NCBI GenBank assembly: GCA_045600105.1
Contig: JAZRXG010000005.1
Location: 25,939 to 89,938 of the forward strand
From: Eubacteriales bacterium
Lineage (GTDB): Bacteria > Bacillota > Clostridia > Oscillospirales > CAG-382
DNA: 64,000 nucleotides
Reading direction: 5' to 3'
The number at the start of each line of letters is the position of its first letter. Within the stretch, counting starts at the first letter, position 1. This document shows, piece after piece, positions 1,602-64,000 of this stretch. Under the pieces are notes generated by a model that saw nothing but the letters and a program-made list of their open reading frames with translations, ran no database searches and was not told the origin of the DNA. A program made the position numbers and the translations under genes.

Positions 1602-2482
1602 GGTCTTATCACCTCGCTGCCGTAAACCCCGTTATGATAAACTCTGACGAACAATTCAAACACTCCTTTTGTGACGAGCGCGTTTACGTGCGGCCTTTTC
1701 ATTATCCCGTCGACGCTGCTTCCGTGGCACGACGCGACGAGCGTGACGCCGCTGTTCTGCGACGCGATGAGTCCTTCGGTCTCGTCGTCGCTTATTTCGT
1801 CGCAGACGATGACCTCGGGCGACATGGTGCGCGTCAGCAGGTCTATCGCCTGCTTTTTCGGACATTCGCGGACGACGTCGACGAGGCAGTCCTTCATTTC
1901 GGGCACGAAAAGCTCGCTCCTTTCGTCGGCGATCCCGACGCGGAGCGGCTTGTTTCCCGACGACAGAAGATAGGCGCACGACCGAAGATAGGTCGTCTTC
2001 CCCATTCCCGGAGGCGAAAAAACGAGCACTCCGCGAAGCCCCTCGTCACGCAGGAAGCGGCAGAGCTCCGACGCGATATCGGGGAAAAATCTGCTCACCC
2101 TGAGGCAGACCGACGTCACTTCCGAAAAAGTTTTTATCCCTTTTCCGTCAAAGACGGCGTTTCCGCAGACGCCCGCGCGGTATCCGTCCGGAAGCGGTAT
2201 GTAGCCGCGTCTTATCGTTTCCTCGTAGGCGTAGAACGATGAGGCGGTAAGGCGCGAAAGGCACTCCGCCATTTCGTTTTTGTCCGTCCTCACCCCGTTT
2301 GCGGCGCGGCACGGTCTGCCGTTTTCGTCAATGAAGACGTTGCTGCCGCCGCAGCTGAGCGACACGGGAAGACCGGTGCGCAGCCGTATTTCCGTTACCC
2401 TTTCCATCAGTTCAGGCGGGCAGGAAAGCAGCACGAGATTAAGACGGTACGGCAGATATTTATACAGTTTTTCGATTTTCAT
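1598..2482 (-). CDS. spoIIIAA: Stage III sporulation protein AA (secretion-type ATPase)
   Basis: 294 aa with Walker A SPPGMGKTTYLR and Walker B-like VIVCDEI. First gene of a spoIIIA-ordered operon. Confidence 0.85.
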   Translation of the reverse strand: MKIEKLYKYLPYRLNLVLLSCPPELMERVTEIRLRTGLPVSLSCGGSNVFIDENGRPCRAANGVRTDKNEMAECLSRLTASSFYAYEETIRRGYIPLPDGYRAGVCGNAVFDGKGIKTFSEVTSVCLRVSRFFPDIASELCRFLRDEGLRGVLVFSPPGMGKTTYLRSCAYLLSSGNKPLRVGIADERSELFVPEMKDCLVDVVRECPKKQAIDLLTRTMSPEVIVCDEISDDETEGLIASQNSGVTLVASCHGSSVDGIMKRPHVNALVTKGVFELFVRVYHNGVYGSEVIRP

Positions 2483-4022
2483 ATTTCAAAAAGACGAGGC
2501 ACAGCAGCGTATACGGCACGAGCAGCGTCACGGCGCAAGCCGCAAGCTCCGGCACTTTCCCCATCTCCGGCAGAAGCGAAGATACCTTTGACGCAAGAAA
2601 GCCCGAAATAAGCGCGAAAAGCGCGGAAAAAGCGAAATGCCCGACGAATCCGTGACGGATCGACGCCTTTTTTACCGTTCTGATATAGCACATGAAGAAC
2701 GAGAACGTGTTCGACACCACGAGCAGCCACAGATACCCGTTAGCCCCCGTGCGGGGAATGAGAAGAAGAATGATGATCATTCTCGTAACGCAGTTGTAAA
2801 CGGTCACCCGCATGGTGTACGCCTGCTCCCCGATGCCCTTGAGCATGCCGTCGCAGATCGTTTCGACGTACATGAACGGAGTGACGAGGGAAAGTATGCG
2901 TATCCCCGACGCCGCGTCGGTATTTCCGTAAAAGCACAGGCTGATCTTTTCGGGGAAAAAGTAAAACAGGCTTCCGGCGGCGACGCTGAACAGTATCGTC
3001 GTTTCAAGCGTTTTGCCTACCCTTGCGTCGCGTTCACGCTTGTCGGAAGACGCGTTCAGCCTCGACACCGTCGGGACGAGCACGCTGAGGGTCGCCGAAA
3101 GAAAGGCGAACGGGAAAAACAGCACGGGGATGACCATGCCGCGTATGAGCCCGAAATCCGAAAGCGACTTTCCGTATTCACCGCCGTAAAGCGTGAAGCA
3201 GTACGGGATAAGCACGTTTTCGACGGCGTGGAGGGCGCTGTTGAGCCAGCCGCCCGCCGCAACGGGGATAGCCACGCGTGCGACCCTGCCGATGCCGTAA
3301 TCGCGCTTTTCGCCTTTTTTGAAACGGTATCTTTTTGAAAACGCGAAGAAAAGAGCGACGTAGCAGCACGAGAATATCTCGCCCGCGGCAAGTCCCGCCG
3401 TGAGTCCGGCGCAGAGCCTTCCCGTGTCGGTCGTGCCGCCGAGGAACAGAGTGAACACGCCGACCGTGAGCCCTATTTTGCACAGGTCCTCAAAAAGCTG
3501 CGCAGACGACGGTATGACGTAACGTCCCTTTGCCATAAAATAGCCCTTGAAGCAGGACGAAAGCGCCATGAACGGCATTGAGAGCGAAAGGAGCCGCAGC
3601 GGCAGCAGCGTTCTGGCGTCGCCGAGGATAAGGCGAGAGAGAGGCGACGACAGAAAAAGCAGCATGGCGAGCGACGACGTGCCCATGAAAAGCGCGAGCC
3701 TGAACGACGAAGAAAGCGCCGAAAGCGCCGTTTTTCCGTCGTCGTTCTTTTCAAATTCCTCCGCGAGGACGCGTGACACGCTGAGCGTGAGCCCCGAATT
3801 TGCGAAAGAAGCAAAAAGCGAATAGACCGAGAGCACGAGCTGATACAGCCCCATTCCCTCGCTGCCCATGCGCGAAACGAGATAAAGGCGGAAAAGCATC
3901 CCGCTTCCCCGGCAAAGAAAAGAGAAAAGGCATATCACCGCGGACGACACAAGTATCTTTTTCCCGAAGTTCAATACGCCGCCTCCCGTTTTTTGCTGCT
4001 GCCTTACATTTTTATGTGCCAA
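2460..4022 (-). CDS. MOP-superfamily flippase (SpoVB/MurJ/polysaccharide biosynthesis protein family)
   Basis: 520-aa polytopic membrane protein with many TM segments and the general SpoVB/MurJ-like layout. Its 3' end overlaps the spoIIIAA start by 23 nt. Confidence 0.7.
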   Translation of the reverse strand: MAHKNVRQQQKTGGGVLNFGKKILVSSAVICLFSFLCRGSGMLFRLYLVSRMGSEGMGLYQLVLSVYSLFASFANSGLTLSVSRVLAEEFEKNDDGKTALSALSSSFRLALFMGTSSLAMLLFLSSPLSRLILGDARTLLPLRLLSLSMPFMALSSCFKGYFMAKGRYVIPSSAQLFEDLCKIGLTVGVFTLFLGGTTDTGRLCAGLTAGLAAGEIFSCCYVALFFAFSKRYRFKKGEKRDYGIGRVARVAIPVAAGGWLNSALHAVENVLIPYCFTLYGGEYGKSLSDFGLIRGMVIPVLFFPFAFLSATLSVLVPTVSRLNASSDKRERDARVGKTLETTILFSVAAGSLFYFFPEKISLCFYGNTDAASGIRILSLVTPFMYVETICDGMLKGIGEQAYTMRVTVYNCVTRMIIILLLIPRTGANGYLWLLVVSNTFSFFMCYIRTVKKASIRHGFVGHFAFSALFALISGFLASKVSSLLPEMGKVPELAACAVTLLVPYTLLCLVFLKYENRKTV

Positions 4023-7156: not shown

Positions 7157-9076
7157 ATGAAAAAGATCGTTGTACTCTTCCTCATCGTATGTCTGTGCAT
7201 ACCCGTTTTCGCGGGCTGCACCACGCTTCAGGGCGATGACGACAAGGGCGCGAACATTCAGATGTTCATCACCTCGTTCCCGCAGTCTCTCGACCCGGCA
7301 ACCCTTCAGCTTGACGCGACCACGTCGCTGATCCTCAGCCTCATCTATCAGCCTCTCACCGCCATCAACGAAGACGGCGAGGTCGTCGGAGCGCTTGCGA
7401 ACAAATGGTACTCCGAATATGATGACTGCGATGAGCTGTATAAAATGTATTTTGAACTGAACGAAACGTATTGGAGCGACAAGATCCTCGTTCAGGCTCA
7501 GCACGTTGCCGACGCCTGGACCCGTATCCTTTCTCCGGATTTCGAGTCTCCCTACGCTTCCATCCTCTTCCCGATCAGAAACGCCAAGGATTACAAAGCC
7601 GGCATCAAGACCGCGTCCGACCTCGGCGTATACGCCATGAGCGAAGACCTCCTCTGCGTTGAATTCGAATGCGAATACGACGCCGACCTCTTTGCCGAAG
7701 CAGTCTCCTGCATAGCGCTTGCCCCCGTTCGTTCCGACATCATCGACAAAGCGATGAAGGATAACCCCGTAGGCAGCAAGAACTACGACAGACTTCAGGA
7801 CTGGGACAAGAACGCCGCCATCATGGTCTGCAACGGTCCGTACAGAGTTCAGGGCTATGAAGAAGGAACCAAGCTCGTTCTCGAAAGAAACGCTTATTAC
7901 TACCGTGACGAAGAAGACGATTACCTTGACGAAAGCGTAATTCCCTACCGTCTCACCTGCATCTATCAGGAAACCACCATCCACAGCGATGAAAACGGCG
8001 ACGGCATCGACAACTACGAATTCGAATACAGAAAATGGAGGAACGACTGGTCTTCTTCCGAAGCCGCGAAAGGCGTCAACTACTTCCTCGGTGCTTTCTC
8101 CGCCGATACCTACGCAAAGGTCAAAGCCGACGGCACCAAGATGAACACCGCAGACCTTCTTTCCACCTATACTTATTTCTTCAACACCAAATCCGAAATA
8201 ACCGCCGACGCCAAAGTCAGAAACGCTCTTTCCGCCGCTCTTGACAGAAACCGCATCGTTGAGATAATGGGCACCGGCATGAAAGCCTCCGCCGGCTTCG
8301 TTCCCGAAGGCGTGTTCGGCAAAAAGGCAGGCTCGAGCTTCAGATCCGAAGGAACCGACATTTACAGCGCTTCCGGCAGCATCGACAGCGCGAAGCAGCT
8401 TCTGAAGGAAGCAGGCGTCACCTCCGGCACCATCAGACTTACTTACCTCATTCCCTGGTCCAAGCAGCTTTATTCTTCCGAGACCCTGCACAACACCAAG
8501 GCGAAAAAGGTAGTCACCTATAACCCCTACGAAGCGATAGCCAACTACGCAAAAGAAACGTGGGAATCCCTCGGATTCACCGTTGAGCTCACCGGCGTCA
8601 CCGCCGACGCTTTCCCCGCAGCGGTCTCCGCGGGCGAATGGGACGTCATCGGTCTCGACTACGCCATGAACTCTGTCGACGCTTTCGCGTTCCTCGCTCC
8701 TTTCGCTACCTGGTACAGCGGAAACATCGTATCCACCGAAGTTGACGCCGCCACCTTCACTCCGCACTACACCGGACTTGAAAGTGCCGAATACGACGCC
8801 CTCATCGATGAGATCGTGTACGACTCCAACAGAGCCACCAGATCCGCCAACCTCCACAAAGCAGAAGAGCTCTTCGCTTCCCTCTGCCCCGCGACCGCTC
8901 TCTTCCAGTACACCAGAAGCTACGTTGCTTCCGGCAAGCTTGACGGGATCAAGAACGAAAGCTGGTACGGCTACTACAACTTCAACGAACTTGAGCTTGA
9001 CGATTACATCAAGGTCAACGCCAAGGAAGGCGAAGAAAGCTTCGCAAGAACCGAAGATACCAACAACGCGAAGTAA
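7157..9076 (+). CDS. ABC transporter substrate-binding lipoprotein, family 5 (peptide/oligosaccharide type)
   Basis: Track ORF 7043..9076 trimmed to ATG 7157, which gives MKKIVVLFLIVCLCIPVFAGC (signal peptide plus lipobox FAGC). Overall SBP_bac_5-like sequence. No permease or ATPase genes are adjacent. Confidence 0.75.
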   Translation: MKKIVVLFLIVCLCIPVFAGCTTLQGDDDKGANIQMFITSFPQSLDPATLQLDATTSLILSLIYQPLTAINEDGEVVGALANKWYSEYDDCDELYKMYFELNETYWSDKILVQAQHVADAWTRILSPDFESPYASILFPIRNAKDYKAGIKTASDLGVYAMSEDLLCVEFECEYDADLFAEAVSCIALAPVRSDIIDKAMKDNPVGSKNYDRLQDWDKNAAIMVCNGPYRVQGYEEGTKLVLERNAYYYRDEEDDYLDESVIPYRLTCIYQETTIHSDENGDGIDNYEFEYRKWRNDWSSSEAAKGVNYFLGAFSADTYAKVKADGTKMNTADLLSTYTYFFNTKSEITADAKVRNALSAALDRNRIVEIMGTGMKASAGFVPEGVFGKKAGSSFRSEGTDIYSASGSIDSAKQLLKEAGVTSGTIRLTYLIPWSKQLYSSETLHNTKAKKVVTYNPYEAIANYAKETWESLGFTVELTGVTADAFPAAVSAGEWDVIGLDYAMNSVDAFAFLAPFATWYSGNIVSTEVDAATFTPHYTGLESAEYDALIDEIVYDSNRATRSANLHKAEELFASLCPATALFQYTRSYVASGKLDGIKNESWYGYYNFNELELDDYIKVNAKEGEESFARTEDTNNAK

Positions 9077-13758: not shown

Positions 13759-14040
13759 TCAGTTCGCCAAATCGTTGTAAAAGATGATGTCGCCCTCGTT
13801 ATAATATCCGAGCTGATCGCGCACTACCCTTTGAATGTATTCATCGGTAACGGGAGCGTCCAGACGGACGTTGGTTTCGTCGATCTCATCTTTGATCTTT
13901 TCGATTTGATTTATTACTTTTTCTTTATTTTTTCTGAGTTCGTTCAGCTCAAGCTGAACGCGGATGACAGCAAAAACCAGCAGGCAGAGAAGCCCGATTA
14001 TCGTCAGCTTGACTATGAAATTGGTGTTGGTCCTTTGCAT
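13759..14040 (-). CDS. divIC: Septum formation initiator (FtsB/DivIC family)
   Basis: 93 aa with an N-terminal TM, a coiled-coil segment and a DQLGYYNEGDIIF tail. Lies in the yabQ-divIC-yabR order. Confidence 0.75.
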   Translation of the reverse strand: MQRTNTNFIVKLTIIGLLCLLVFAVIRVQLELNELRKNKEKVINQIEKIKDEIDETNVRLDAPVTDEYIQRVVRDQLGYYNEGDIIFYNDLAN

Positions 14041-14525
14041 TGTCGGTTTTCGCTCCTTTCGGCTTTGTGACTTTTGTTTTTTGCTTTTTGCGTTTTTTCA
14101 AATCCGTTCGCCGCCGATGATATCATCCTGCGGCAGGCGGCGTATGAATAAATCCTTTTGCGGTATTTATCGATTTTTCGCAGCGTTTTCGTTCTGATGA
14201 CGCCGAAAGCGCGTGAAAAAAGCGACCTGATGAACGCGGATACGCGTCCGGTGACCCTGCCGAGCGTGAAAAAATACGCGGCAAAGCCGATGCCCGATGT
14301 GAGCAGCGCGTAAGCGCGTATCCTGCCGTGCGAGTAGTTAAAAAACAGCACGCACATAAGGCAGGAATAATAAACGCAGAACACGACGTCCGTTATGAAG
14401 AGGAACACCCTGCCTTTGAAAAACGCCCTTATCAGCCGGAACGCGTCATAGACCGCTCCGCTGAAAAGCCCCGCCGCAAGTGAACAGAAGAACAGAAGAT
14501 TATGAGAAACGTAATCGATCTCCAT
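14013..14525 (-). CDS. yabQ: Spore cortex biosynthesis protein YabQ
   Basis: 170-aa membrane protein, GAVYDAFRLIR motif, directly after yabP. Confidence 0.7.
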   Translation of the reverse strand: MEIDYVSHNLLFFCSLAAGLFSGAVYDAFRLIRAFFKGRVFLFITDVVFCVYYSCLMCVLFFNYSHGRIRAYALLTSGIGFAAYFFTLGRVTGRVSAFIRSLFSRAFGVIRTKTLRKIDKYRKRIYSYAACRRMISSAANGFEKTQKAKNKSHKAERSENRQCKGPTPIS

Positions 14526-16299: not shown

Positions 16300-17961
16300 T
16301 CAGTCCTCTTTTATGAATCCCTTGCGGACAAGGAACGCGCAGAGCGTTCTTCCCTTGGGGAGTATGCGTACTTCTTCCGCGGTTATGCCCTTGACCGCGA
16401 TCAGGCTGACCGCGTACACGACCACTCCGACGGCACCCGCCGCGCAGAGTATCACCAGCGCCGCCAGGCGCGATTCGCCGAGTACGGCATTGCCGAGCAG
16501 CACGACGAGATAGGCGGCTCCTCCGCAAAGCAGCGAACATATAAACGGCTTTGCGAATATCGAAAGAAGCGACGAGGTAAGATATTTATACTTTTTGAGA
16601 AAAAACAGGTTCATCGAGAGCGCCACGATATAGCAGAGCACCGAAGCGATCGGGGCACCGTAGATGCCGATGCTCTTTATCCTTACGAGCACTATCTCGG
16701 CAGCGGTCAGCACGACGACTCCGCAGAACACGGAAATGGTCGGCAGATATGATTTTTTGACCGCGGGAAGGATCGAGTTGGTGGTCGAAAGCACCGAGAT
16801 GAAGATTATTCCGATGGCAAGTATGCGCACTCCTCCGGTCGCGACGTCTATCGGCGTGCCGGTGGCTTCGGTCCACACCATATTCTTTCCCCAATCAGAC
16901 GTATAGAGCAGAACGAGCGCCTGACGCGCCACGGCGAACAGACCGAACGCGCAGGGCAGCCCGATTATCGCCGAAATGCGTATGGACGAATGTATGTAAT
17001 TCTTTGCTTTTTTCACATTCTTCGCGGCGAGCGACGCGGAAATGGCGGGAAGGATGGAGATCGCTATGGGGAACACGAGCGTCGACGGCAGCAGATCGGA
17101 AATGGAAAGCGACAGCGTCGAATAGGACGTGTAGAGCATTTTGGCGGTTTCTTCGGCAACTCCCGAGCTGATGAGCGCCTTTTTGATGACTATGGTATCA
17201 AGGAAGCTCGACAGATAAAGCAGCGACGACGTGAGGGTGACGGGGATGGCGACCTTGATTATGGTGCCGACTATCCAACCGTACTCGTTGGTCGGTGTTT
17301 CGATGCCCGTTCTTTCTTTCTTTTCAAAGAAATATTTCCAGACCGCCGTGAATATGAGCGCAAGCACCATGCCGATGGTTATGCCCGATACGGCGTAAGC
17401 CGCCTGAAGAGCGGGAGAAAGGTGATGGCTTACCGCGTAGGACGCGGCTGCCACGCCGATGATGAACTTGAACGCCACCTCGATGAGCTGACCGTAGGCG
17501 GTGGGCTGCATGATGTGATGTCCCTGAAAGTATCCGCGAAGCGCCCCGAGAAGGCACACGAGGAACAGCGACGGAGATATCATGCGCATCGCCGCGGCAG
17601 CGTCGGCGTGCTCGGAATATTTTGCTATCGCGTCGGCGCCGAAGAACATTATCGCCGTGCAGACAAGGCCTATTATACCGTATACGGCGATGCCCGCCTT
17701 GAAAATGCGGTCGACTTCGGTCTTTCTGCCTCTTTCATGCGAGGAAGCGACCATGCGCGATATCGCCACGGGAACGCCCGCGTTTGAGATCATATAAAGC
17801 ATGGCGTACACCGAATACGCCGCGGTGAACATTTCCATGTTTTCCTGCAGCATATTTGCCATCGGTATGCGGAACGCCACGCCGATTATCTTTACGATAA
17901 GATTGGAAACGGAGATTATCAGCGCTTCCGTAAGAAACGAACCGGTTTGTTTTTCCTTCAT
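16300..17961 (-). CDS. MOP-superfamily flippase (YabM/SpoVB-like)
   Basis: 553-aa polytopic membrane protein and paralogue of 2460..4022. Its position matches yabM of the B. subtilis yabM-yabN-yabO-yabP-yabQ-divIC-yabR cluster. Confidence 0.7.
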   Translation of the reverse strand: MKEKQTGSFLTEALIISVSNLIVKIIGVAFRIPMANMLQENMEMFTAAYSVYAMLYMISNAGVPVAISRMVASSHERGRKTEVDRIFKAGIAVYGIIGLVCTAIMFFGADAIAKYSEHADAAAAMRMISPSLFLVCLLGALRGYFQGHHIMQPTAYGQLIEVAFKFIIGVAAASYAVSHHLSPALQAAYAVSGITIGMVLALIFTAVWKYFFEKKERTGIETPTNEYGWIVGTIIKVAIPVTLTSSLLYLSSFLDTIVIKKALISSGVAEETAKMLYTSYSTLSLSISDLLPSTLVFPIAISILPAISASLAAKNVKKAKNYIHSSIRISAIIGLPCAFGLFAVARQALVLLYTSDWGKNMVWTEATGTPIDVATGGVRILAIGIIFISVLSTTNSILPAVKKSYLPTISVFCGVVVLTAAEIVLVRIKSIGIYGAPIASVLCYIVALSMNLFFLKKYKYLTSSLLSIFAKPFICSLLCGGAAYLVVLLGNAVLGESRLAALVILCAAGAVGVVVYAVSLIAVKGITAEEVRILPKGRTLCAFLVRKGFIKED

Positions 17962-53333: not shown

Positions 53334-53402
53334 CGGGACGTCGAGGACGCCGTCCACTGCAAAGCAAAAAAGGATTTCCGCATTTTTTCGCGGAAATCCT
53401 TT
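53334..53402. repeat. Mosaic intergenic repeat, copy 3 (modules A+B), left flank of the AT-rich cassette
   Basis: CGGGACGTCGAGGACGCCGTCCACTGCAAA (53334-53363) plus hairpin AAAGGATTTCCGC/GCGGAAATCCTTT (53369-53402). Same orientation as copy 4. Confidence 0.8.
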
Positions 53403-53426
53403 TTGCGTATTTAGATATAAAATATA

Positions 53427-53702
53427 TTATATGTTTTTCTTCAATTCATCAAGTTCGTCTTTGATTTTTTCAATGAATTCTTTTTTCTTTTTGGAATTCA
53501 AAAAATCATATTCGCTTCGTCCAACAAGGTAATCGATTGATACGTTGAAAAAATCAGCAAGACGTATTAATGCTTCGCCATCCGGTGATGTTTTTTCGGT
53601 TTCGTAATTAGATATAGTGCGTTGATCAATTCCGGTTGCATCCGCTAAATCTTTTTGTCGCATATCACGATCTTCTCTAAGGTCTTTGATTCTATTTTTC
53701 AT
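53427..53702 (-). CDS. XRE-family helix-turn-helix transcriptional regulator
   Basis: 91 aa. RIKDLREDRDMRQKDLADATGIDQRTISNYETEKTSP is a canonical HTH_3 motif. Confidence 0.88.
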   Translation of the reverse strand: MKNRIKDLREDRDMRQKDLADATGIDQRTISNYETEKTSPDGEALIRLADFFNVSIDYLVGRSEYDFLNSKKKKEFIEKIKDELDELKKNI

Positions 53703-53760
53703 TTTTTCTCCAATATCATAGCTTTTTTCTTTTAATATACTATTTTTTTAGTAAAAACTA

Positions 53761-53789
53761 TTGACATTCCAATATTTAACATATATACT
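53761..53789 (+). promoter_or_regulatory. Putative sigma-A promoter of the small-protein genes
   Basis: TTGACA (53761-53766), 17-nt spacer, TATACT (53784-53789), in the divergent region between the XRE gene and the lipoprotein gene. Confidence 0.5.
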
Positions 53790-53936
53790 ATATTCATACC
53801 AAGATTTTAGTATCCGGATGTAAGTATTCAATTAAAATAGCAGAAATTATATTGGTTGCTTGTTGCTATGGTATTAATTACAAAATAATTTGCTAGTATC
53901 GCATGTTATACTGTTATATTTTAAGGATGATTTATT

Positions 53937-54305
53937 ATGAAAAAACTTTTATTTGTTTATTTGCTATTTTTCACTTTTTGTTTGACAAGTTGCAGCCTAT
54001 TAGATGATATAAATCCTAAAGATGATGCTTATTGTTCTTCTGGAAACGTATCATTAAAATTCAATTTCGTCTCAAAATATTACTTCTTAGAATCCACAAT
54101 TACAAACACCGGAAGCGATGACGCAGATTATGTGACAGTTTATTGGTATTATGTAGATAATTACCAGAATAAAAAGTATGAACGGCAAACTTATATTGGG
54201 ACAATACCTGCCGGGAGCTCGGTTATTTTTTCATCAAGTCATTTTTTCGATCATTATGGTTGCGGGATAATAGATTACGGTATAAGCGAAATAAGGTGGG
54301 ATTAA
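53937..54305 (+). CDS. Small lipoprotein, unknown function
   Basis: 122 aa, signal peptide with lipobox L-T-S-C (residues 16-19), AAGGA RBS, beta-rich mature part. Confidence 0.65.
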   Translation: MKKLLFVYLLFFTFCLTSCSLLDDINPKDDAYCSSGNVSLKFNFVSKYYFLESTITNTGSDDADYVTVYWYYVDNYQNKKYERQTYIGTIPAGSSVIFSSSHFFDHYGCGIIDYGISEIRWD

Positions 54306-54306
54306 A

Positions 54307-54597
54307 ATGCTTTTGTTTATTATTGTCATTCTGATTAGTTTTGCAGGATGGAAAATATTATATAAAATTATTGCTGGTTCTGCAAAGCAAGCCAAAAATT
54401 ATAAAAATAATTATAAAGAAGATGTGAGAACACATGCGTTAATTAACACCATAAACAAAACGCAAGGTAATAATGCTCACGTTGATCAAGATTTAATTAA
54501 CCAACAACAAAACGACAAAAATGGATACTATTTTTGGCTGTTTATTACTATTGCTATTATTATATTTTTCGTGATTATATTCGTTACTTCCAAATAA
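54307..54597 (+). CDS. Small two-TM membrane protein, unknown function
   Basis: 96 aa. ATG lies 1 nt after the preceding stop. N- and C-terminal hydrophobic helices flank a Q/N/K-rich loop. Confidence 0.55.
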   Translation: MLLFIIVILISFAGWKILYKIIAGSAKQAKNYKNNYKEDVRTHALINTINKTQGNNAHVDQDLINQQQNDKNGYYFWLFITIAIIIFFVIIFVTSK

Positions 54598-54786
54598 TTT
54601 CTTTTGTAAATCATAAATCGACAATAGAAAGTCAAATGTCGAAATGCAAAACCGAACCAAAAACCCACACATCAGTATAGCACATCCAATTTCATAATTT
54701 CCAATCACAATCAAAACGTCGGGAACGCCTCCACTACAATATAATAATCCCAAATTACAAATCACTGAAAGCGAGAGATTCATAAA

Positions 54787-55059
54787 TTGAAAGCAAAAAG
54801 AAATGAAATAATTGTTTATATTATTGTATTGATTATTTCGGCACTTATTATATATTTTTTGGCAGAAACGCTTTTCCGTAACCATTTCGGTCTTCTAAGT
54901 GAAAAAGAACGTTTGGCAGCTTTGAACGAATACAATGAATCTCATTATATAGAAATGCACATTTATAAGTGCGGAAATTGCGGAACCGACTTTATCTGCG
55001 TTGACACTGAAACGCCTGCTTTTCAATGCTGCCCTGAGTGCGGAGCACTGTGGAAATAA
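54787..55059 (+). CDS. Small membrane-anchored zinc-ribbon protein, unknown function
   Basis: 90 aa (TTG start per the ORF track), N-terminal TM IIVYIIVLIISALIIYFL, C-terminal CGNC...CPEC zinc ribbon. Confidence 0.5.
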   Translation: MKAKRNEIIVYIIVLIISALIIYFLAETLFRNHFGLLSEKERLAALNEYNESHYIEMHIYKCGNCGTDFICVDTETPAFQCCPECGALWK

Positions 55060-55110
55060 CATTTGACACTAAACGATATTCTTAAAAAATCAATCACTCC
55101 TGACTGAAAT

Positions 55111-55200
55111 CGGGACGTCGAGGACGCCGTCCCCTACAAAGTCAAAAAGGATTTCCGTATCCGCGGAAATCCTTTCTTATTCGCTTAAGGCTTTTATGCT
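55111..55200. repeat. Mosaic intergenic repeat, copy 4 (modules A+B+C), right flank of the AT-rich cassette
   Basis: CGGGACGTCGAGGACGCCGTCCCCTACAAA (55111-55140), hairpin AAAGGATTTCCG/CGGAAATCCTTT (55146-55175), then CTTATTCGCTTAAGGCTTTTATGCT abutting the stop at 55202. Confidence 0.8.
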
Positions 55201-57966: not shown

Positions 57967-58018
57967 CTCAGGCGTTCTTGTCGCGGCTCTTGAAAACAAG
58001 AGAAAACATCACGGCGAA
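57967..58018. repeat. 52-bp direct repeat, copy A (duplicate of the spoVAE 3' end)
   Basis: CTCAGGCGTTCTTGTCGCGGCTCTTGAAAACAAGAGAAAACATCACGGCGAA matches 59497-59548 at 50 of 52 positions. Confidence 0.9.
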
Positions 58019-58171
58019 AACATTCGGATTCTTTGCAGCGTCACAAACGAAAGCCCATACCGCTTTAATGACATATATGCGTCGAAAAAGCCGTATAGAC
58101 TTTGCGTTTTTATTGTATGACTCTACTGGACAATTTTTCTTATTTCAAAATATTGTCCAATAGACAAGTGA

Positions 58172-59353
58172 TTACAAAGATTCCATTTTCAAAAAATCGC
58201 ATAGCTTTATATGTTGGACTGTGCTGGTGGAATAATCAAGTTCATCATTGCTGATGAGTATTTTTCGGCAGGAATTATCCATATTATTCAGTGCTTTGAA
58301 TTCACGGTTATACGCCTTTTCCTCCGCAACGGACAAAGCCACCTGTATATAATACTGTTTATTTTCTTTTATGGCAACGAAGTCGATTTCTTCTTTTCCG
58401 TTGAAATAAACCTGTAAGGAATACCCCATATATACAAGCTCATTATAGACTATATTTTCAAGATTATGAGAAAGGTCAAACCTGCCGTTCGTGCAGCGTA
58501 TTGAATTCAGGCAAACGTCTTCGTCGTACGTCTTCTGATAATAGTTCAATTCACGCTTTGCTTTGCCGGAATAAAGCCGTACCGTTTCAATCGCAAACGC
58601 CTCTTCCAAATAGCCGAGATACTTTGTGACAGTCGTTACAGAGCAAGGAAATCCATTTGATTTCAGGTAATCGTTGATAGATCTTGCGGAAAATACTCTT
58701 GCGTTGGAAATGAGAACATAATTTGCGATTTTACGGAACGTATCCGTTTTTCGGATGCCATATCGATTGATGATATCATTGATGATAATCGTTTCGTTCA
58801 AATCGTTCAAATATATTTTTTGTGCTTCCGTACCGTCAAATTCAAGTCGTTTCGGAAATCCGCCCCAAACGAGATAATCGGTAACCGACACATATTTGCC
58901 GAGTTCTTCGGCGTATTCACAAAGCTCTTTATACACAAAAGGACGAACGCGAAAAGCAACATATCTTCCCGAAAGTTCTTTTGTGAATTCCTTTGATAAA
59001 AGTTTTGAATTAGAACCGCTGATAAAAACAGAGCAGTCATGAAGTCGTATGGTACGGCAGGCAACCGCCCAATCTTTAACACGTTGAACTTCATCGAGGA
59101 ACACATAACATTTCCCGCTTTTTCTGTGCTCATCGACATAATTTATCAGTGAAACCGCGTCAGGCAGCGTCATCAAAACGGAAGCGTCTTCAAAATCAAG
59201 ATCAATAATGTTATTCGTTTTCGCTTTTATCTCAGACAAAATTTCGTCAAGAATCACTGATTTTCCGCAGCGTCGTATTCCCGTAATAATTTTGATCAAA
59301 TCGCTATCGTAAAAATCACGAACAGGGGCAATATAATGCTCTCTGTAAATCAT
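58172..59353 (-). CDS. AAA-family ATPase with DUF4143-type C-terminal domain (COG1373-like)
   Basis: 393 aa, Walker A GIRRCGKS, Walker B VFLDEVQ, C-terminal nuclease-fold-like region typical of AAA_14/DUF4143 proteins. Confidence 0.75.
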   Translation of the reverse strand: MIYREHYIAPVRDFYDSDLIKIITGIRRCGKSVILDEILSEIKAKTNNIIDLDFEDASVLMTLPDAVSLINYVDEHRKSGKCYVFLDEVQRVKDWAVACRTIRLHDCSVFISGSNSKLLSKEFTKELSGRYVAFRVRPFVYKELCEYAEELGKYVSVTDYLVWGGFPKRLEFDGTEAQKIYLNDLNETIIINDIINRYGIRKTDTFRKIANYVLISNARVFSARSINDYLKSNGFPCSVTTVTKYLGYLEEAFAIETVRLYSGKAKRELNYYQKTYDEDVCLNSIRCTNGRFDLSHNLENIVYNELVYMGYSLQVYFNGKEEIDFVAIKENKQYYIQVALSVAEEKAYNREFKALNNMDNSCRKILISNDELDYSTSTVQHIKLCDFLKMESL

Positions 59354-59375
59354 AAAAGTATTTCACCTCGAAAGC

Positions 59376-59404
59376 AGTATATCACAAGCAAAGCAAAAAG
59401 TCAA
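59376..59404 (-). promoter_or_regulatory. Putative sigma-A promoter of the ATPase gene
   Basis: Minus strand: TTGACT (59404-59399), 17-nt spacer, TGATATACT (TATACT 59381-59376), then RBS GAGGTG. Confidence 0.5.
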
Positions 59405-59496
59405 CAAAATCATTCATTACTAATGGACAATATTGCAAATATTAAAAAATCGTCCAATATGCAATATGCTTTTCTGCGGCAGAAAAATGACTGATG

Positions 59497-59548
59497 CTCA
59501 AGCGTTCTTGTCGCGGCTCTTGAAAACAAGAGAAAATATCACGGCGAA
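59497..59548. repeat. 52-bp direct repeat, copy B (authentic 3' end of spoVAE)
   Basis: Covers the stop codon (59498-59500) and the last 16 codons of spoVAE. Confidence 0.9.
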
Positions 59549-59857
59549 CGAGACCGCCGCCGTTATCCCCGCGGAAGTTGCCGAAAGCCCTCCGGTGAGT
59601 ACGCCGAAAAGTCCGTTTTCGTCAACGGCGTCCTTCACCCCGTTCGCGAGCAGATAGCCGAATCCGGTGAGCGGCACCGTCGCGCCCGAAGACGCGAAAG
59701 AGACGAGTTTTCCGTAAACGCCGACTCCCGTCAGAACGACTCCGGCGCAGACGTAGGCAACAAGTATCCTTGCCGGCGTGAGTTTGGTCTTGTCGACGAG
59801 GATCTGGGCTGCGACGCAGAAAGCGCCGCCGACGAGAAAAGCACGCAGATATTCCAT
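59498..59857 (-). CDS. spoVAE: Stage V sporulation protein AE
   Basis: 119 aa from ATG 59857 (GGAG RBS; overlaps the spoVAD stop as TAATG). MEYLRAFLVGGAFCVAAQILVD...GATVPLTGFG is typical of SpoVAE/SpoVAC-fold membrane proteins. Confidence 0.85.
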   Translation of the reverse strand: MEYLRAFLVGGAFCVAAQILVDKTKLTPARILVAYVCAGVVLTGVGVYGKLVSFASSGATVPLTGFGYLLANGVKDAVDENGLFGVLTGGLSATSAGITAAVSFAVIFSLVFKSRDKNA

Positions 59858-60279
59858 TATACACACTCCAGTTCGATAAGATGCGCCGTCGCGGGGATGG
59901 GCAGCTTCTGCAGCACCGTACGCGGCGAAAGCAAAGCACCCGTGCCGACGAGCAGCATCCTTTTTATTTCTTTTTTCACTATCTTCGGCAGAAAATACGC
60001 CGCGGTCACCGCCGCCGAGCAGCCGCAGCCCGAGCCGCCCGAGTGGACGTCCTGTTTTTTCGCGTCGTAAATGAGCACGCCGCAGTCGGTGAGGACCGCC
60101 GTTCTGTCAAAACCGCTCCTGTCAAGCAGCTCGCGTGCTATCTCAAGCCCCTCTTCCCCGAGGTCGCCCGTGGCGATGACGTCGTACGCCGACGGCACTT
60201 CACCCGTGTCGGCAAAAAAACGCAGTATGGTGTCAACAGCGGCAGGGGAAAATGTCAAGGGTAGACGATAAAAATTCAC
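59857..60279 (-). pseudogene. spoVAD: Stage V sporulation protein AD, C-terminal ~135 codons only (gene split by an inserted element)
   Basis: PAAVDTI...YDVIATGDLG...SGGSGCGCSA...GTGALLSP matches the last ~40% of SpoVAD (~338 aa in B. subtilis). The first few codons of the track ORF (MNFYRLP) are junction read-through. Homology and GC content break at ~60262. Confidence 0.8.
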
Positions 60280-60399
60280 AAATTGTTAAAATTCCTTTAT
60301 TTATGCGGGTTTCCGGACTTTTTATATGGGTGCCGCTATGGGTGGGTTACTGTTAAGTTTAAACCATAAGACGAAAATCGGGGCATTTTTGCTTCCAAA

Positions 60400-60436
60400 A
60401 GCAAAAAATCGGAGGCATCACACCTCTGATTTTTTG
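60400..60436 (-). terminator. Bidirectional Rho-independent terminator after the kinase gene
   Basis: ATCGGAGG-7 nt-CCTCTGAT (60408-60430) is flanked by A-run/T-run on both sides. An additional hairpin TTTTTGCTT/AAGCAAAAA lies at 60386-60407. Confidence 0.6.
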
Positions 60437-60465
60437 TATTTCCGCAGTATTTTACCCGTCGGAAA

Positions 60466-61290
60466 TCACAACGAAAACAATTTTTGCCTTTCCAAAATGC
60501 ACTCTTCTACCCGATCAAGTATCAAATCTCTGTCCCTTTTGGGGTAATAATCGAGAAGCGGTTTCACTCTGTCCGCGATTTCCACCCGGTCATATTTCCT
60601 GATTTTCAGTATCGGGCCTGTCAATCCTCTCGCCGTATTCATCTGTCTTGTAAAAGACGTTCCCATCGGTCTTGCGATCGATTTTTTTATGAGCGCCTTC
60701 GGCGCTATGTCAAAGGGCAAAAAGCTCACACCCGAAAGAAGTCCCGCTCCGTTGTCGAAAATGGGGCAATAGGAATATCCACCGTCTTTTTCTATAACGG
60801 CTATGTTGTTCAGGTGTCTGTCGTCATTCAAAAAAAGCGAGTCCACTTCAAAAATCAAGGTGAGATACTTCGGAAAATCCGTAAGTCCCGTGATTTCCGC
60901 CGTAGTGTTTGCCAAATACTCAACTCTTTTTTTGTCGCTTGTAAATTTCATCAGTTTTTCTTTCAAAGGACAGCCCAGATAAAGAGTCAGCAATCTGTTG
61001 AGCGTAACGATGGATTCTCCGTCTTTCAGAAAATTTCCGCTGACGCAGCCCGTTCTGTCTCTGCCGTGAACACGAAAACGCGTCATGCCGTACCGAACAA
61101 ACGTGAACGGCGTATCCGTTTCGATATTGCTGTCTTCCAAAAATTCGGAAATGACCGTTTCGGCAAGGCTTTCGTAACCGAATTGATCGAGCTTGTACCA
61201 GCAGTCGGTTTCTTTGTCGTACCATTTTTCCTGATTTCCTTTTGACGAGGTTTCGGCTATTTTTTCATCGGAAACAAGTTTTATCTCCAT
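60466..61290 (-). CDS. HipA-family Ser/Thr kinase-like protein, core domain only
   Basis: 274 aa from ATG 61290 (GGGAGG RBS; TGATG overlap with the upstream gene). Motifs are KGNQEKW (ATP loop-like), NDDRHLNNIAV (catalytic loop-like) and IFDNGAG (Mg-binding-like). Confidence 0.7.
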   Translation of the reverse strand: MEIKLVSDEKIAETSSKGNQEKWYDKETDCWYKLDQFGYESLAETVISEFLEDSNIETDTPFTFVRYGMTRFRVHGRDRTGCVSGNFLKDGESIVTLNRLLTLYLGCPLKEKLMKFTSDKKRVEYLANTTAEITGLTDFPKYLTLIFEVDSLFLNDDRHLNNIAVIEKDGGYSYCPIFDNGAGLLSGVSFLPFDIAPKALIKKSIARPMGTSFTRQMNTARGLTGPILKIRKYDRVEIADRVKPLLDYYPKRDRDLILDRVEECILERQKLFSL

Positions 61291-61823
61291 CAAAGTACCT
61301 CCCATTCAAGATGAATGCCGTCTTCAGCCATAACGCCCTTCGTTTTTTTGATAATTTCGATCGGCTCATATGAATCTATTCCAAGCGCATCCAGATAATC
61401 TCTGATACCCGCACGACTTTCCGGAACGCAGCGTTCTGCAAGAAAACTTTCATAATCCGAAAAATCGGGTTTTTCGTTATTTCCGAAAGGCGTTTTCACC
61501 ATATTTTCCGTATGATCTTCGTGTTTCACCGTTTTGTCGGTATAGTCGGCACAAACGGACGAACAAAAATTACCACCGTCAAAAATGTTGAGCCTGACGA
61601 GCTTGTGACCGAGCTGCTTTTTGTTTTCGATAAATTCGCTTAAGTTTTCCCGCGGTTTGACCGTAATGCTTTTTCCGTCAAAGGATAAATCTATATCATT
61701 ATTCACAAGTTCCAATTCATTCACCCATTTTGACGGTATTGTTATTTTGTAAGTTTTTGAATTTTTTCCGGCATTACCGCCGGCTTTCCCGACGATCAGT
61801 TTTGTATTTCTCGTTTCCATCAT
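61290..61823 (-). CDS. Kinase partner protein: AbrB/MazE-like N-terminal DNA-binding domain fused to a HipA-N-terminal-like region
   Basis: 177 aa. The N-terminal KTYKITIPSKWVNELEL...SITVKP is swapped-hairpin-like. The C-terminal FLAERCVPESRAGIRDYLDALGID...GVMAEDGIHL resembles, from memory, the LLPEG..R...LGI...D..GA signature of the HipA N-terminal region. Confidence 0.5.
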   Translation of the reverse strand: MMETRNTKLIVGKAGGNAGKNSKTYKITIPSKWVNELELVNNDIDLSFDGKSITVKPRENLSEFIENKKQLGHKLVRLNIFDGGNFCSSVCADYTDKTVKHEDHTENMVKTPFGNNEKPDFSDYESFLAERCVPESRAGIRDYLDALGIDSYEPIEIIKKTKGVMAEDGIHLEWEVL

Positions 61824-61838
61824 ATCATCACCGATAAT

Positions 61839-61867
61839 ACTATATCATATTCGTAACGAATAGTCAA
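61839..61867 (-). promoter_or_regulatory. Putative sigma-A promoter with an embedded palindromic operator for the partner/kinase operon
   Basis: Minus strand: TTGACT (61867-61862), 17-nt spacer, TGATATAGT (TATAGT 61844-61839). The spacer contains the perfect 13-nt palindrome ATTCGTAACGAAT (61849-61861). Confidence 0.55.
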
Positions 61868-61893
61868 GGCTTTTCAATACGCACGCAAAGATA

Positions 61894-61925
61894 CGGCTGA
61901 TCTGACGCCGTGCTCGGATCAGCCG
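61894..61925 (-). terminator. Hairpin downstream of the recombinase gene (weak terminator)
   Basis: 9-bp stem CGGCTGATC/GATCAGCCG with a 14-nt loop and a poor U-tract. Confidence 0.35.
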
Positions 61926-61933
61926 CAATTTCT

Positions 61934-63631
61934 TTACGCCGTTCTGGCGATTTCTTTGTTCAGTTCGATATACTCGATGACTTGCTTATACGCATCCTTG
62001 AACTTTAAGTCGATTTCGATTTTGTTGCCTTCGAAGACACGTATCTCCTGCACCAGTTCCACGAGCATGGCTCGAGTCAGGGTATCAAAATTGCCGTACT
62101 TTTTGAAATGAGTTATGAACTCGTTTTCCGCGCTGATCCCTTTTTCGATCTCGGCGGCGTTCTTTTCGAGGTTGGCGATCATCGCGTCAAGAGATGCGAT
62201 CTTCTCGCTCATATTCGCTTTGATGAGCATATATTCTTCCTGCGAAATAACGCCGGCTTTCCAGTCGGGGTACAGATCCACCATATTCCGCACCAGCCTA
62301 TCACGTTCCGCCTGCTGTGTTTTCAAAAGCTTCTGAACGTGGTTCGATTCTTTTTTGCGTACGGGACTGTCGTTGATCTTTTGCAGGACTTCATCCAGCG
62401 ACACCACCGTCCGGACTACGGTCTGCAGGTACACAAGCACCGCTTGTTCCAGCTTGTCGATGCGGATGGAATGATTCGTGCAGGCACCGTTATGCATTTT
62501 TCGCGCAGTCGTGCAACGGTAATACCCGTAAACGCCGTAGGCGTGATTATTGAATTTCCGATTCATTGCACGGTGACACGAGCCGCATTTGATCAGTCCC
62601 GCAAACAGATACACGTTCTTATTGTTCGGCGCTTTGCGGATGTTCCGGTTGAAAAGCGACTGCACCTTATCGAAGGTGTCACGGTCGATGATCGGCTCGT
62701 GCGTTCCTTCGACGCGGTACCATTCATCTTTCGGAACGGCTTTCGCACGCTGATCTTTGTAACTGATATTGCGGTTTTTCCCCTGCACCATCGTGCCGGT
62801 GTACATTTCGTTCGTGAGGATACGCCGCACCGACGTGTCGGGCCACAAGCCGTCATCGGCGGCTCCGACAGGGTGCTTGTAGTTCAGTCCTTTCAGTTTC
62901 TTATACATCGACGGATTCGGGATGCCCATTTCGTTCAGATCTTTGGCAATGCCGACAATGCTCTCGCCGCCGATATATTTTTCAAAAATCAATTTTACCG
63001 TAGGCGCCGCATCCTCGTCGATGATCAGTTTATGATGATCTTCGGGATCTTTCATATAGCCGTACGTCGGGAACGAGCCGATGAATTTTCCCTGCTGGCG
63101 GTTGACGTTAAGCGTACCGCGCACGTTCACCGACGTGGTCGCCGCCACGCTTTCGTTGATGACGTTGGTGACGCCGAGCGTGATGCACTGCGTTGCCGCG
63201 CTCATATTATTTGAAAAGGTATCATAACCGTTGTTCAGTGCGATGAAGCGCACGCCCAGACGTGCAAATTCATTCGTTATCAGCTCGCCGCCCTGCGAAT
63301 AGTTACGTCCGAAACGGGAAAGGTCTTTGACGATCACGCAGTTGACACGTCCGGCGTTGATATCCTCCATCATTCTCGTGAAATCCGGTCGGTCGAAATT
63401 CGTTCCCGACCAACCGTCATCCACGTAGAAATCGTAGAAGGTGATATCGGGGTGCAGTTTGAGATATTCCTTGAGGATCTCACGCTGTGAAACGACGGAG
63501 TTGCTTTCTCCCGCCATCTCGTCTTCACGGGAAAGACGAATATAAAGAGCAGCCGTCCAAGTCCGCAAACTTTGAGAAGGCTGCCCCAAATAGTCAGAAT
63601 ATTTTACATTTGACATTATGCTTGCCTCCAT
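61934..63631 (-). CDS. Large serine recombinase (resolvase N-terminal domain, recombinase domain, zinc ribbon, coiled coil)
   Basis: 565 aa. Has a catalytic-Ser region AALYIRLSREDE, VKDLSRFGRN, the zinc ribbon CGSCHRAM...YYRCTT...GACTNH, and a long C-terminal coiled coil. The start may be ATG 63616. Confidence 0.9.
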   Translation of the reverse strand: MEASIMSNVKYSDYLGQPSQSLRTWTAALYIRLSREDEMAGESNSVVSQREILKEYLKLHPDITFYDFYVDDGWSGTNFDRPDFTRMMEDINAGRVNCVIVKDLSRFGRNYSQGGELITNEFARLGVRFIALNNGYDTFSNNMSAATQCITLGVTNVINESVAATTSVNVRGTLNVNRQQGKFIGSFPTYGYMKDPEDHHKLIIDEDAAPTVKLIFEKYIGGESIVGIAKDLNEMGIPNPSMYKKLKGLNYKHPVGAADDGLWPDTSVRRILTNEMYTGTMVQGKNRNISYKDQRAKAVPKDEWYRVEGTHEPIIDRDTFDKVQSLFNRNIRKAPNNKNVYLFAGLIKCGSCHRAMNRKFNNHAYGVYGYYRCTTARKMHNGACTNHSIRIDKLEQAVLVYLQTVVRTVVSLDEVLQKINDSPVRKKESNHVQKLLKTQQAERDRLVRNMVDLYPDWKAGVISQEEYMLIKANMSEKIASLDAMIANLEKNAAEIEKGISAENEFITHFKKYGNFDTLTRAMLVELVQEIRVFEGNKIEIDLKFKDAYKQVIEYIELNKEIARTA

Positions 63632-63679
63632 AATTTATTTTTTACAGAGGCGATATGCGATCAACACTTTACGGTTCGT

Positions 63680-63708
63680 ATTATACCATATCGCCTCCGT
63701 TTTTGCAA
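63680..63708 (-). promoter_or_regulatory. Putative sigma-A promoter of the recombinase gene
   Basis: Minus strand: TTGCAA (63708-63703), 17-nt spacer, TGGTATAAT (TATAAT 63685-63680). It is overlapped by the 11-bp inverted repeat GAGGCGATATG/CATATCGCCTC (63647-63657 and 63687-63697). Confidence 0.5.
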
Positions 63709-63738
63709 TAAATTTCTCAAAAATATGCGATGGCAATT

Positions 63739-63990
63739 TTATCCCGTCTGAAAAACGGCGGCAATGGCATCCGTTACCGTCTTTCCGTCTCCGTATTTTA
63801 CCCTGACGGTAATATCGCCCACCTTGAAAAGATACGGGTCTCCTACCTGTCCCATAAAATCTTTGACACGCTCGACAACAGACTTGCTTGTGTCAACATT
63901 TATATTCCGCAAATCAACAAGGGAAGCGGTGTCGTGCGATGAAAAATCTGCCGCTTTGCCGATTGCGTTGGGCATAAGTGGGGCGTTCAA
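63739..63990 (-). CDS. Hypothetical small protein of the integrated element
   Basis: 83-aa ORF directly upstream of, and co-oriented with, the recombinase gene. No family assigned from sequence alone. Confidence 0.4.
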   Translation of the reverse strand: MNAPLMPNAIGKAADFSSHDTASLVDLRNINVDTSKSVVERVKDFMGQVGDPYLFKVGDITVRVKYGDGKTVTDAIAAVFQTG

Positions 63991-64000
63991 ATGTGCGATT

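Follow-up and report, generated by a model that had tools for sequence, protein, structure and literature searches.

Why does a bacterium that otherwise looks able to sporulate carry a spoVAD gene broken in two by a recombinase-bearing insertion? The case arises in a 64,000-nucleotide stretch of DNA (the window) from an Eubacteriales bacterium of the Oscillospirales (GenBank assembly GCA_045600105.1, contig JAZRXG010000005.1, positions 25,939 to 89,938). An initial annotation, made from the letters alone, had noted that spoVAD, whose product is part of the machine loading dipicolinic acid (DPA) into spores, is split there by an element carrying a large serine recombinase (LSR). We find that an integrated LSR element does interrupt spoVAD, and we consider, at a probability of about 0.6, that this is a plain site-specific mobile element, mobilizable or conjugative and of the Tn4451/TnpX class, using a conserved coding motif of spoVAD as its landing pad.

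The split spoVAD gene and its recurrence

The minus-strand open reading frame (ORF) 59857..60279 encodes 140 amino acids corresponding, as first annotated, only to the C-terminal ~40% of SpoVAD. The product matches the Pfam SpoVAD profile (PF07451) over positions 201 to 329 of 329 (E 1.2e-47) and aligns with residues 205 to 331 of the solved B. subtilis SpoVAD (PDB 3LMA), so that its identity as SpoVAD, on which the annotation had made its whole reading depend, is borne out by both alignments. The spoVAD stop codon overlaps the spoVAE ATG in the sequence TAATG, also as previously read, and spoVAE itself, of the SpoVAEB type (59498..59857, minus strand), covers positions 1 to 117 of 117 of PF03862 (E 3.4e-34). 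The host-derived part of the 140-residue ORF extends from the crossover-bearing proline codon CCT to the stop (59857..60246, minus strand; 129 amino acids, approximately residues 207 to 335 of full-length SpoVAD), and residues 1 to 11 (MNFYRLPLTFS) are encoded by the element end, not by the host. Upstream of the fragment, beyond position 60300, the G+C content is ~0.42 to 0.46 versus 0.58 before it. The boundary between host and element had been placed at ~60262; it is indeed abrupt and marked by this drop, but its exact position is the CC at 60246-60245. Using tblastn, with SpoVAD N-terminal probes for the 5' half, we detected neither the SpoVAD N-terminal half nor spoVAC elsewhere in the window. 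Expression of the C-terminal half on its own is unlikely, given that it has neither an in-frame ATG nor a Shine-Dalgarno sequence, only a TTG inside the attachment (att) half-site; at attR, a TTGACA hexamer is present without a following -10 box.

Beyond the junction lies the right-hand 3.75 kb of the element (60246..64000), which continues past the window edge, the left junction being outside the window. All of its features are on the minus strand. The crossover dinucleotide CC (60245..60246) forms the first two bases of the proline codon and adjoins, on the element side, a right-end (P) half-site, ATCGTCTACCCTTGACATTTTCC (60247..60269), which is conserved in ~60 right ends of related loci and contains TTGACA at 60258-60253. 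The initial description of the DNA beyond this point as a terminator, a gene pair, a 565-residue LSR and further minus-strand DNA holds, with the recombinase domains confirmed by Pfam. The LSR (61934..63631) is TnpX/TndX-like, with the domain order Resolvase (PF00239, E 2e-19), Recombinase (PF07508, E 3e-28), Zn_ribbon_recom (PF13408, E 5e-16) and a borderline DUF4368 (PF14287), and it matches the PHROG 95 integrase (E 4e-116). It contains the Y-x-R-x-S signature in AALYIRLS(34)REDE, invariant between the window and the related metagenome contig L003, which makes S34 in YIRLS(34)RED the candidate catalytic serine. A sigma-A-like, promoter-like site lies ahead of the gene at 63708-63680. Immediately upstream of the LSR is a gene for a small DUF6870 protein (63739..63990; PF21757, E 7e-18), whose start may lie past the window edge and which gave tblastn matches in 77 of 84 sequences (83 loci and the window). 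This protein is possibly an accessory or directionality factor of the LSR. It had no plasmid, PHROG, PADLOC or NCBIfam match, only 4 homologues were retrieved, its AlphaFold model was poor (predicted local distance difference test score, 64), and a Foldseek search with the fold returned nothing at E below 4.

The same arrangement recurs in other genomes. Scanned with a two-LSR alignment as the query, a set holding a single genome for each species yielded 80 loci, all of them from Oscillospirales (Acutalibacteraceae, Oscillospiraceae, Ca. Avispirillum, Lawsonibacter and Oscillibacter), with LSRs that are 60 to 91% identical. In 61 of the 80, the element is inserted in spoVAD at the same junction and is co-oriented with the gene: 53 have the SpoVAD C-terminal half downstream of the LSR on the same strand, 5 have the N-terminal half upstream and 3 have both. 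Neither half was found in the other 19, in 13 of which the contig ends within ~3 kb of the downstream end of the LSR. In addition, the attL pattern was present in 42 contigs of a metagenome collection. With this junction DNA found again in 61 genome loci and its left counterpart in 42 metagenome contigs, an assembly artefact is excluded for the window. A protein match (P0058) led to L003, in which DUF6870 is followed by the LSR and then by the spoVAD fragment; this LSR is 64% identical to that of the window without gaps, and the junction DNA is almost identical. Cultured carriers include Oscillibacter valericigenes An890 (L052) and Lawsonibacter sp. LCP25S3_F5 (L051). The aligned junctions thus place this LSR family at exactly the same two bases of spoVAD across dozens of gut Clostridia.

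A protein search with the SpoVAD fragment also retrieved many C-terminal pieces of ~133 amino acids from diverse Clostridia, which start with MTFSPAA.. or carry ..FYG(V/L)(P/L)LT(F/S)SPAA.. instead of the normal ..NMGAAMAPAA... That such short fragments might be the norm was rejected as a length bias of the search tool. When 1.8 billion representatives were scanned without this bias, the element-type junction appeared in ~12 of the best 150 SpoVAD C-terminal clusters, and a full-length SpoVAD query returned thousands of relatives with intact genes. Uninterrupted spoVAD in relatives, which the initial annotation had suggested looking for, is therefore the rule.

Several loci depart from the simple arrangement. 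Additional element right ends are joined to left-end-like sequence at ~12634 in L073 and at ~10795 in L075, which creates attP-like junctions, and L069 has at ~7382 a decayed second copy of the attR region; these extra ends suggest tandem insertion, or accretion, of elements at the spoVAD site. Two SpoVAD ORFs, P0170 and P0258, have an internal deletion that joins the N terminus directly to the region after the att site, and several chimeric SpoVAD representatives have unrelated N termini fused at different positions. Other rearrangements of spoVAD, or other insertion sites in it, may thus exist.

Attachment sites and excision in silico

The right junctions share the consensus ..TTTATGGTKT(A/T)C(C/T)CTTGACATTT(A/T)CC CC TGCNGC.., and the left junctions, seen in relatives, the consensus ..AATATGGGNGCNGCNATGGCNCC YG..RTGTTAWAMT..ACCAYA.., the left-end form also being written ..ATGGCNCC YG or ..AAYATGGGNGCNGCNATGGCNCC YG. 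In L033, attL (GGCA CC TGTAG) and attR (TTACC CC CGCTG) have only the CC in common, and from this comparison the CC is taken as the 2-bp crossover expected for a serine integrase. Both element ends were available in three loci, L015 (13.6 kb), L033 (11.8 kb) and L061 (9.1 kb), in each of which attL, attR, attB and attP could be reconstructed as sites of the kind used by serine integrases, with a length below 50 bp, an imperfect dyad and a 2-bp crossover.

Joining the flanks at the CC in silico gave ORFs of 339 (L015), 346 (L033) and 338 (L061) codons. The L015 product covers positions 3 to 327 of 329 of the Pfam SpoVAD profile (E 4e-140) and is 87% identical, with 0 gaps, to the natural uninterrupted SpoVAD P0270 (336 amino acids), whose locus, L128, has the order gpr-spoVAC-spoVAD. 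The natural attB of L128, AACAATATGGGCGCCGCTATGGCA CC TGCCGCGTGTGATACCAT, agrees with the reconstructed one at 52 of 62 positions, the differences falling mostly on synonymous third-codon positions. The earlier proposal that the spoVAD 5' half should lie at the far end of the element is thus borne out in relatives with the same junction, and the proposal that joining the halves restores an intact ORF of ~335 amino acids around a short shared core holds for three of them (338 to 346 amino acids, CC core); the corresponding left junction of the window copy lies outside the window.

The element ends are imperfect inverted repeats (ATGGT..TTGACAT and ATGTTAA..ACCAT). When joined, they give TTGACA-17 nt-TAAAAT (L015 and L033) or TTGACA-17 nt-TAAACT (L061), with a TG extension, a combination that in silico would constitute a near-consensus sigma-A promoter existing only in the excised circle. 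This joint promoter reads into the genes at the left end, either TnpV or DUF6870-LSR, and the TTGACA at 60258-60253 of the window would be the -35 box of a promoter of this kind.

Two further repeat structures were observed near the ends. L015 carries sub-terminal inverted repeats, ATTTTACTGGGG and CCCAGTAAAAT, at ~825-845 and 14305-14325; in the elements of the largest LSR cluster, such repeats lie within the element at a distance of ~85 nt from its left end and ~35 nt from its right end, and an accessory protein may bind them. The window has an internal LSR-type site, TTATGGTTTAAACTTAACAGTAACCCACCCATAGCGGCACCCATAT (60324..60369), made of a P-type half-site and the reverse complement of the half-site on the N side of spoVAD ('NMGAAMG'), ATATGGGTGCCGCTATGGG. 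Of 60 right ends, 27 have such an internal att-like site, which lies 72 nt upstream of the true end and is confined among these 60 to elements whose LSR is separated from that end by cargo. The site may be a scar of accretion, may offer a second place for recombination or may serve in LSR regulation.

Gene content, horizontal spread and known relatives

The initial annotation had likened the element to skin and SPbeta. The comparison holds for the insertion in a sporulation gene and, in relatives, for its precise restorability, but not for the kind of element, which is a Tn4451/TnpX-type element that spreads horizontally among Oscillospirales, with variable cargo of defence, restriction-modification, arsenic, transporter and quorum-sensing genes, and not a vertically inherited prophage remnant. 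Although LSR and SpoVAD fragment identities correlate overall (Mantel p 0.0005), 142 pairs of LSRs that are at least 98% identical adjoin SpoVAD C-terminal halves that are just 48 to 66% identical, which indicates that the element spreads horizontally. The window LSR is likewise 91% identical to that of L004, where the adjoining SpoVAD halves share only 44% identity. Vertical co-divergence, as in a skin-like domestication, was ruled out by these near-identical LSRs beside very divergent hosts. A prophage was rejected as well: the best LSR matches reach 41% identity among phages and 37% in IMG/VR, and complete elements of 9 to 14 kb contain no phage genes.

The gene content points instead to mobilization. 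The L033 element encodes TnpV (PF14198), an S51 peptidase, NikA/MobC and a MobA/VirD2 relaxase, the DUF6870-LSR pair, an AAA_14/DUF4143 ATPase, a RecQ-like helicase and a DprA-like protein; the mobilization module and TnpV are thus seen in this relative, and the 3.75 kb of the window shows neither. TnpV, like the DUF6870 protein a candidate accessory factor, lies behind attL in 10 metagenome loci, and the DUF6870-LSR pair lies 150 to 250 nt behind it in L054, L060, L061 and L103. In L061 this pair forms the left end, followed by unannotated cargo ORFs of 746, 218, 295 and 821 amino acids, the last of which resembles an ABC-type ATPase by eye only. L004, the closest relative, whose element extends for more than 10 kb upstream of the LSR, carries type I restriction-modification genes and an ArsP permease beside an ORF that is ArsR-like, again by eye only, and L003 carries an agr-like module. 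In metagenome contig OGOJ01002621.1 (L086), the attL at ~1149 is followed by ParB, DUF6017, DUF3801, a VirD4/TraG coupling protein and a 1,038-residue SpaA/thioester surface protein (adhesin), and the first 10 kb contain no LSR; besides small mobilizable elements, the site thus accommodates integrative and conjugative elements (ICEs). Judged by these genes, the spoVAD elements are Tn4451-like mobilizable or conjugative elements and not prophages. In L003, a pemK RNA motif (Rfam RF02913, 59.7 bits) occurs at 7648-7747, just upstream of the DUF6870-LSR module; L048 has a similar-looking sequence upstream of that module, without an Rfam call.

Between its LSR and its right end, the window element carries two cargo genes. 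The product of the first (279 amino acids, 60466..61305) matches the PADLOC phage-defence candidate PDC-M03A (PDLC04340, E 3.2e-11), has an NDDRHLNN motif and had no match in Pfam, NCBIfam or the PDB. The second (177 amino acids, 61290..61823) encodes a protein with a weak match to PDC-M03B (PADLOC E 6e-4) and a weakly AbrB/MazE-like N terminus (Pfam MazE_antitoxin, E 0.008, below the cutoff), and it has a promoter-like site of its own at 61867-61839. The pair had been called HipA-like, an identity that Pfam, NCBIfam and the PDB left unconfirmed for the 279-residue protein; the match to PDC-M03A/B is the better description. An intrinsic terminator (60412..60426; stem GAGGTGTGATGCCTC followed by a T run) closes the pair and, as predicted from its stem and T run, blocks read-out from the element into the spoVAD fragment and spoVAE.

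Two other low-G+C segments were seen in the window. Directly 3' of spoVAE, positions 57967-59548 form a second small insertion (G+C, 0.37 to 0.40) with an AAA_14/DUF4143 ATPase gene (58172-59353, minus strand) that matches PDC-S01, a single-gene defence candidate in PADLOC (E 3e-112). Direct repeats of 52 bp (57967-58018 and 59497-59548, 96% identical to each other), a duplication of the spoVAE 3' end, bound the insertion on both sides, and there is no integrase within its 1.5 kb; a gene of the same ATPase family stands directly behind the LSR in L033. At ~53400-55150, a sharp island of 0.26 to 0.35 G+C, against ~0.55 to 0.60 on both sides, holds small ORFs, including those for an XRE-type helix-turn-helix protein (53427-53702, minus strand) and a putative lipoprotein, and is probably another horizontally acquired segment.

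Among known systems, Tn4451 and Tn4453 are the closest. They share with the spoVAD elements an LSR with resolvase, recombinase, zinc-ribbon and DUF4368 regions (the last borderline in the window LSR and faint in L003), a 2-bp crossover with imperfect inverted-repeat ends and a joint promoter (in the spoVAD elements, in silico and in relatives), and the TnpV (PF14198) and Mob/relaxase genes, present in relatives, of a mobilizable and nonviral element. Lyras and Rood reportedly found in 2000 that the circular form of Tn4451/Tn4453 creates a promoter across the joint. Unlike Tn4451, whose crossover core is GA, the spoVAD family has a CC core and is strictly specific for one spoVAD coding motif, possesses a DUF6870 gene, itself conserved, ahead of the LSR, carries defence, restriction-modification, arsenic or transport genes in place of catP, and includes some fully conjugative members (L086) and many with an extra internal att-like site. 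Since the target specificity of Tn4451 is low (PMC5704250), whereas 61 of the 80 loci have the insertion at the identical position, we do not file the spoVAD element as a member of the Tn4451 family. The site-specific serine-recombinase integrative and mobilizable elements (IMEs) and ICEs of Firmicutes, such as the streptococcal ones in rumA, are similar in having a single LSR and short direct repeats and in disrupting a conserved gene (PMC5704250), but their target is a dispensable housekeeping gene and not a core sporulation gene.

Skin-type elements resemble the spoVAD element in being LSR-bearing insertions in a sporulation ORF, with the recombinase near one edge and a gene that precise excision would rebuild. 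The intervening elements described so far, namely, skin (sigK), SPbeta (spsM), vfbin (spoVFB), vrin (spoVR), the gerE element and yin (yabG), all sit in mother-cell genes (PMC4191935, PMC10747680); the mother cell is terminal, so that an element excised there stays in the spore genome (PMC4191935). In contrast, both in C. difficile and in Bacillus, spoVAC-AD-AE belongs to the sigma-G regulon of the forespore (PMC3789822). The initial annotation was thus right that an insertion here implies a logic different from that of skin-type elements. Its two alternatives, that the strain would sporulate poorly or would have to lose the element in the forespore or germ line, are logically sound. Skin-type elements are, moreover, prophages or their remnants, whereas the spoVAD elements are of the IME/ICE type with clear recent horizontal transfer, and no sporulation-specific promoter or recombination directionality factor was identified in the spoVAD elements examined. 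Active lysogeny, as by the Listeria phage phi10403S in comK, offers another parallel, as reversible insertion could turn a gene for development or regulation on and off while the element is kept; here, however, the element is not a phage and regulated reversibility is only a proposed reading. Full-text searches of the literature library used here gave no paper linking spoVAD to recombinase insertion, in agreement with the first impression that this is not a described target, and the closest mention was of gut genomic islands carrying copies of spoVAC/AD/AEb as cargo (PMC6907783).

The choice of spoVAD as a target

The reading that we favour, a site-specific mobile element with a landing pad in spoVAD, would work as follows. 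The LSR would recognize a ~45-bp imperfect palindrome in spoVAD, which encodes the highly conserved N-M-G-A-A-M-A-P-A-A, and exchange strands at the CC of the proline codon. Integration truncates SpoVAD after about residue 206 (in relatives, the ORF of the N-terminal half runs a few codons into the element and ends with ..APVDVKIEP and a stop codon), strips the C-terminal half of its start codon and ribosome-binding site and, in the window genome, also parts spoVAE from the spoVA operon promoter. Because the N-terminal half ends early, the C-terminal half lacks an ATG and a ribosome-binding site and a terminator closes the last element operon, the spoVAD fragment and, here, spoVAE should be silent, and a germ line that retains the element could presumably not make the DPA import machinery. 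The reverse reaction would be precise to the base pair and would restore spoVAD, as reconstructed in the three relatives. Excision is probably low level or unregulated, by analogy with TnpX of Tn4451, which excises and integrates without a directionality factor (PMC5704250), and the joint promoter, as described for Tn4451, would boost expression of the recombinase or accessory genes in the excised circle alone. The simplest reason for the choice of spoVAD is its invariant coding sequence, which would offer a landing site across a broad host range, with reduced spore quality as a tolerated cost.

Several observations weigh against this reading. The carriers look like sporulators, because their sporulation genes and the flanking spoVAE are intact. 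The window host has intact spoIIIAA, spoIIIAB, a spoIIIAC/AD-family gene, yabQ and two SpoVB-like flippase genes (535-2482, 14013-14525, 2460-4022 and 16300-17961) as well as spoVAE, and looks sporulation competent apart from the split spoVAD, and spoVAE is full length in other hosts. In such lineages a permanently disrupted spoVAD would be costly, which leaves room for regulated excision. In L061 and L015, the stretch from attL to the first element gene also has no plus-strand terminator, making read-through from the spoVA promoter into the element possible, which would argue for a developmental trigger. The excised circle was not seen: none of 241 million metagenome records contained the attP joint, where the attL control gave 42, and the two matches to the attP pattern in IMG/VR were both chance promoter matches, so that the only sign of activity in nature is the pattern of horizontal transfer. 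The DUF4368 match of the window LSR, at 24.9 bits, falls just under the cutoff of 25 and is faint in L003. Finally, the left junction and the spoVAD 5' half of the window copy lie outside the window, and its integrity is inferred from relatives.

Part of this evidence would fit a developmental switch in the germ line, in which sigma-G-driven read-through of spoVA across attL leads to excision in the forespore or the predivisional cell, spoVAD and spoVAE are restored, and a nonreplicating circle is kept in the spore and reintegrates at germination by means of the sigma-A joint promoter. Besides the intact sporulation genes, the missing terminators and a joint promoter confined to the circle, expression of spoVA in the forespore of both Bacilli and Clostridia, the position of the DUF6870-LSR pair close behind attL in four loci and the growth-phase-dependent excision of the yin element (PMC10747680) all speak for it. 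The co-orientation of all 61 insertions with spoVAD would do so too, but it is dictated by the asymmetric CC core and is therefore not independent evidence. A scan for sigma-G and sigma-F motifs upstream of spoVAC (one usable region) and of the recombinase modules gave no convincing match, and no sporulation-type promoter is recognizable upstream of these modules, which are very diverse. In the window, moreover, the LSR sits at the far end of the element behind its own sigma-A-like promoter. Since the elements are horizontally mobile parasites with mobilization or conjugation genes, no switch of benefit to the host is needed, and the lack of attP joints in metagenomes also counts against one. 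We consider such a switch unlikely, and slightly more so in its fully reversible variant, with excision by sigma-G read-through in the forespore, restored DPA import, and a circle that rides in the spore and reintegrates on germination.

The insertion might alternatively be neutral, spoVAD serving as a safe harbour in hosts that have a second intact spoVAC-AD-AE set or do not depend on DPA-loaded spores. The spoVA mutants of C. perfringens and C. difficile still form spores that are stable, though less heat resistant. Serine-recombinase IMEs typically insert inside genes and disrupt dispensable ones (PMC5704250), a preprint (10.1101/2022.02.25.481979) lists one carrier species, Oscillibacter valericigenes, among the non-spore-formers, and gut mobile elements with spoVAC/AD/AEb copies are on record (PMC6907783). 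We nevertheless regard neutrality as unlikely, as no second SpoVAD match was found within the 64-kb window or within 10 kb on either side of any locus and the neighbouring sporulation genes are intact. That the window holds a dead relic, a decaying pseudogene beside a stranded recombinase after deletion or rearrangement of the spoVAD 5' half and the element left end, is very improbable: the left junction is out of view and decayed or duplicated ends are known in the family (L069, L073 and L075), but the right end, the core, the LSR and DUF6870 ORFs, the spoVAD fragment and spoVAE are all intact, the last 150 nt and the DUF6870-LSR module are, respectively, 93 and 86% identical to those of L004, and restoration is precise in the three relatives with both ends.

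Spores are the route between hosts for many strict gut anaerobes. As predicted from the junctions, this element family would switch spoVAD off on arrival and could restore it precisely on leaving, and it could thereby influence both the quality of spores and their transmission in many species of Oscillospirales. Where annotations of metagenome-assembled genomes show split 'SpoVAD' fragments and seeming sporulation defects, the same family may be the reason. The LSR and its attB, with a CC core and a natural host range extending down to SpoVAD halves that are ~40% identical, make a candidate genome-engineering tool for gut Clostridia. The insertion breaks the rule that intervening elements of sporulation genes occupy only mother-cell genes, and whether a forespore gene can be gated without loss of the element becomes directly testable in the cultured carriers L051 and L052. 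If true, the reversible switch would be the first intervening element to operate in the inherited cell line.

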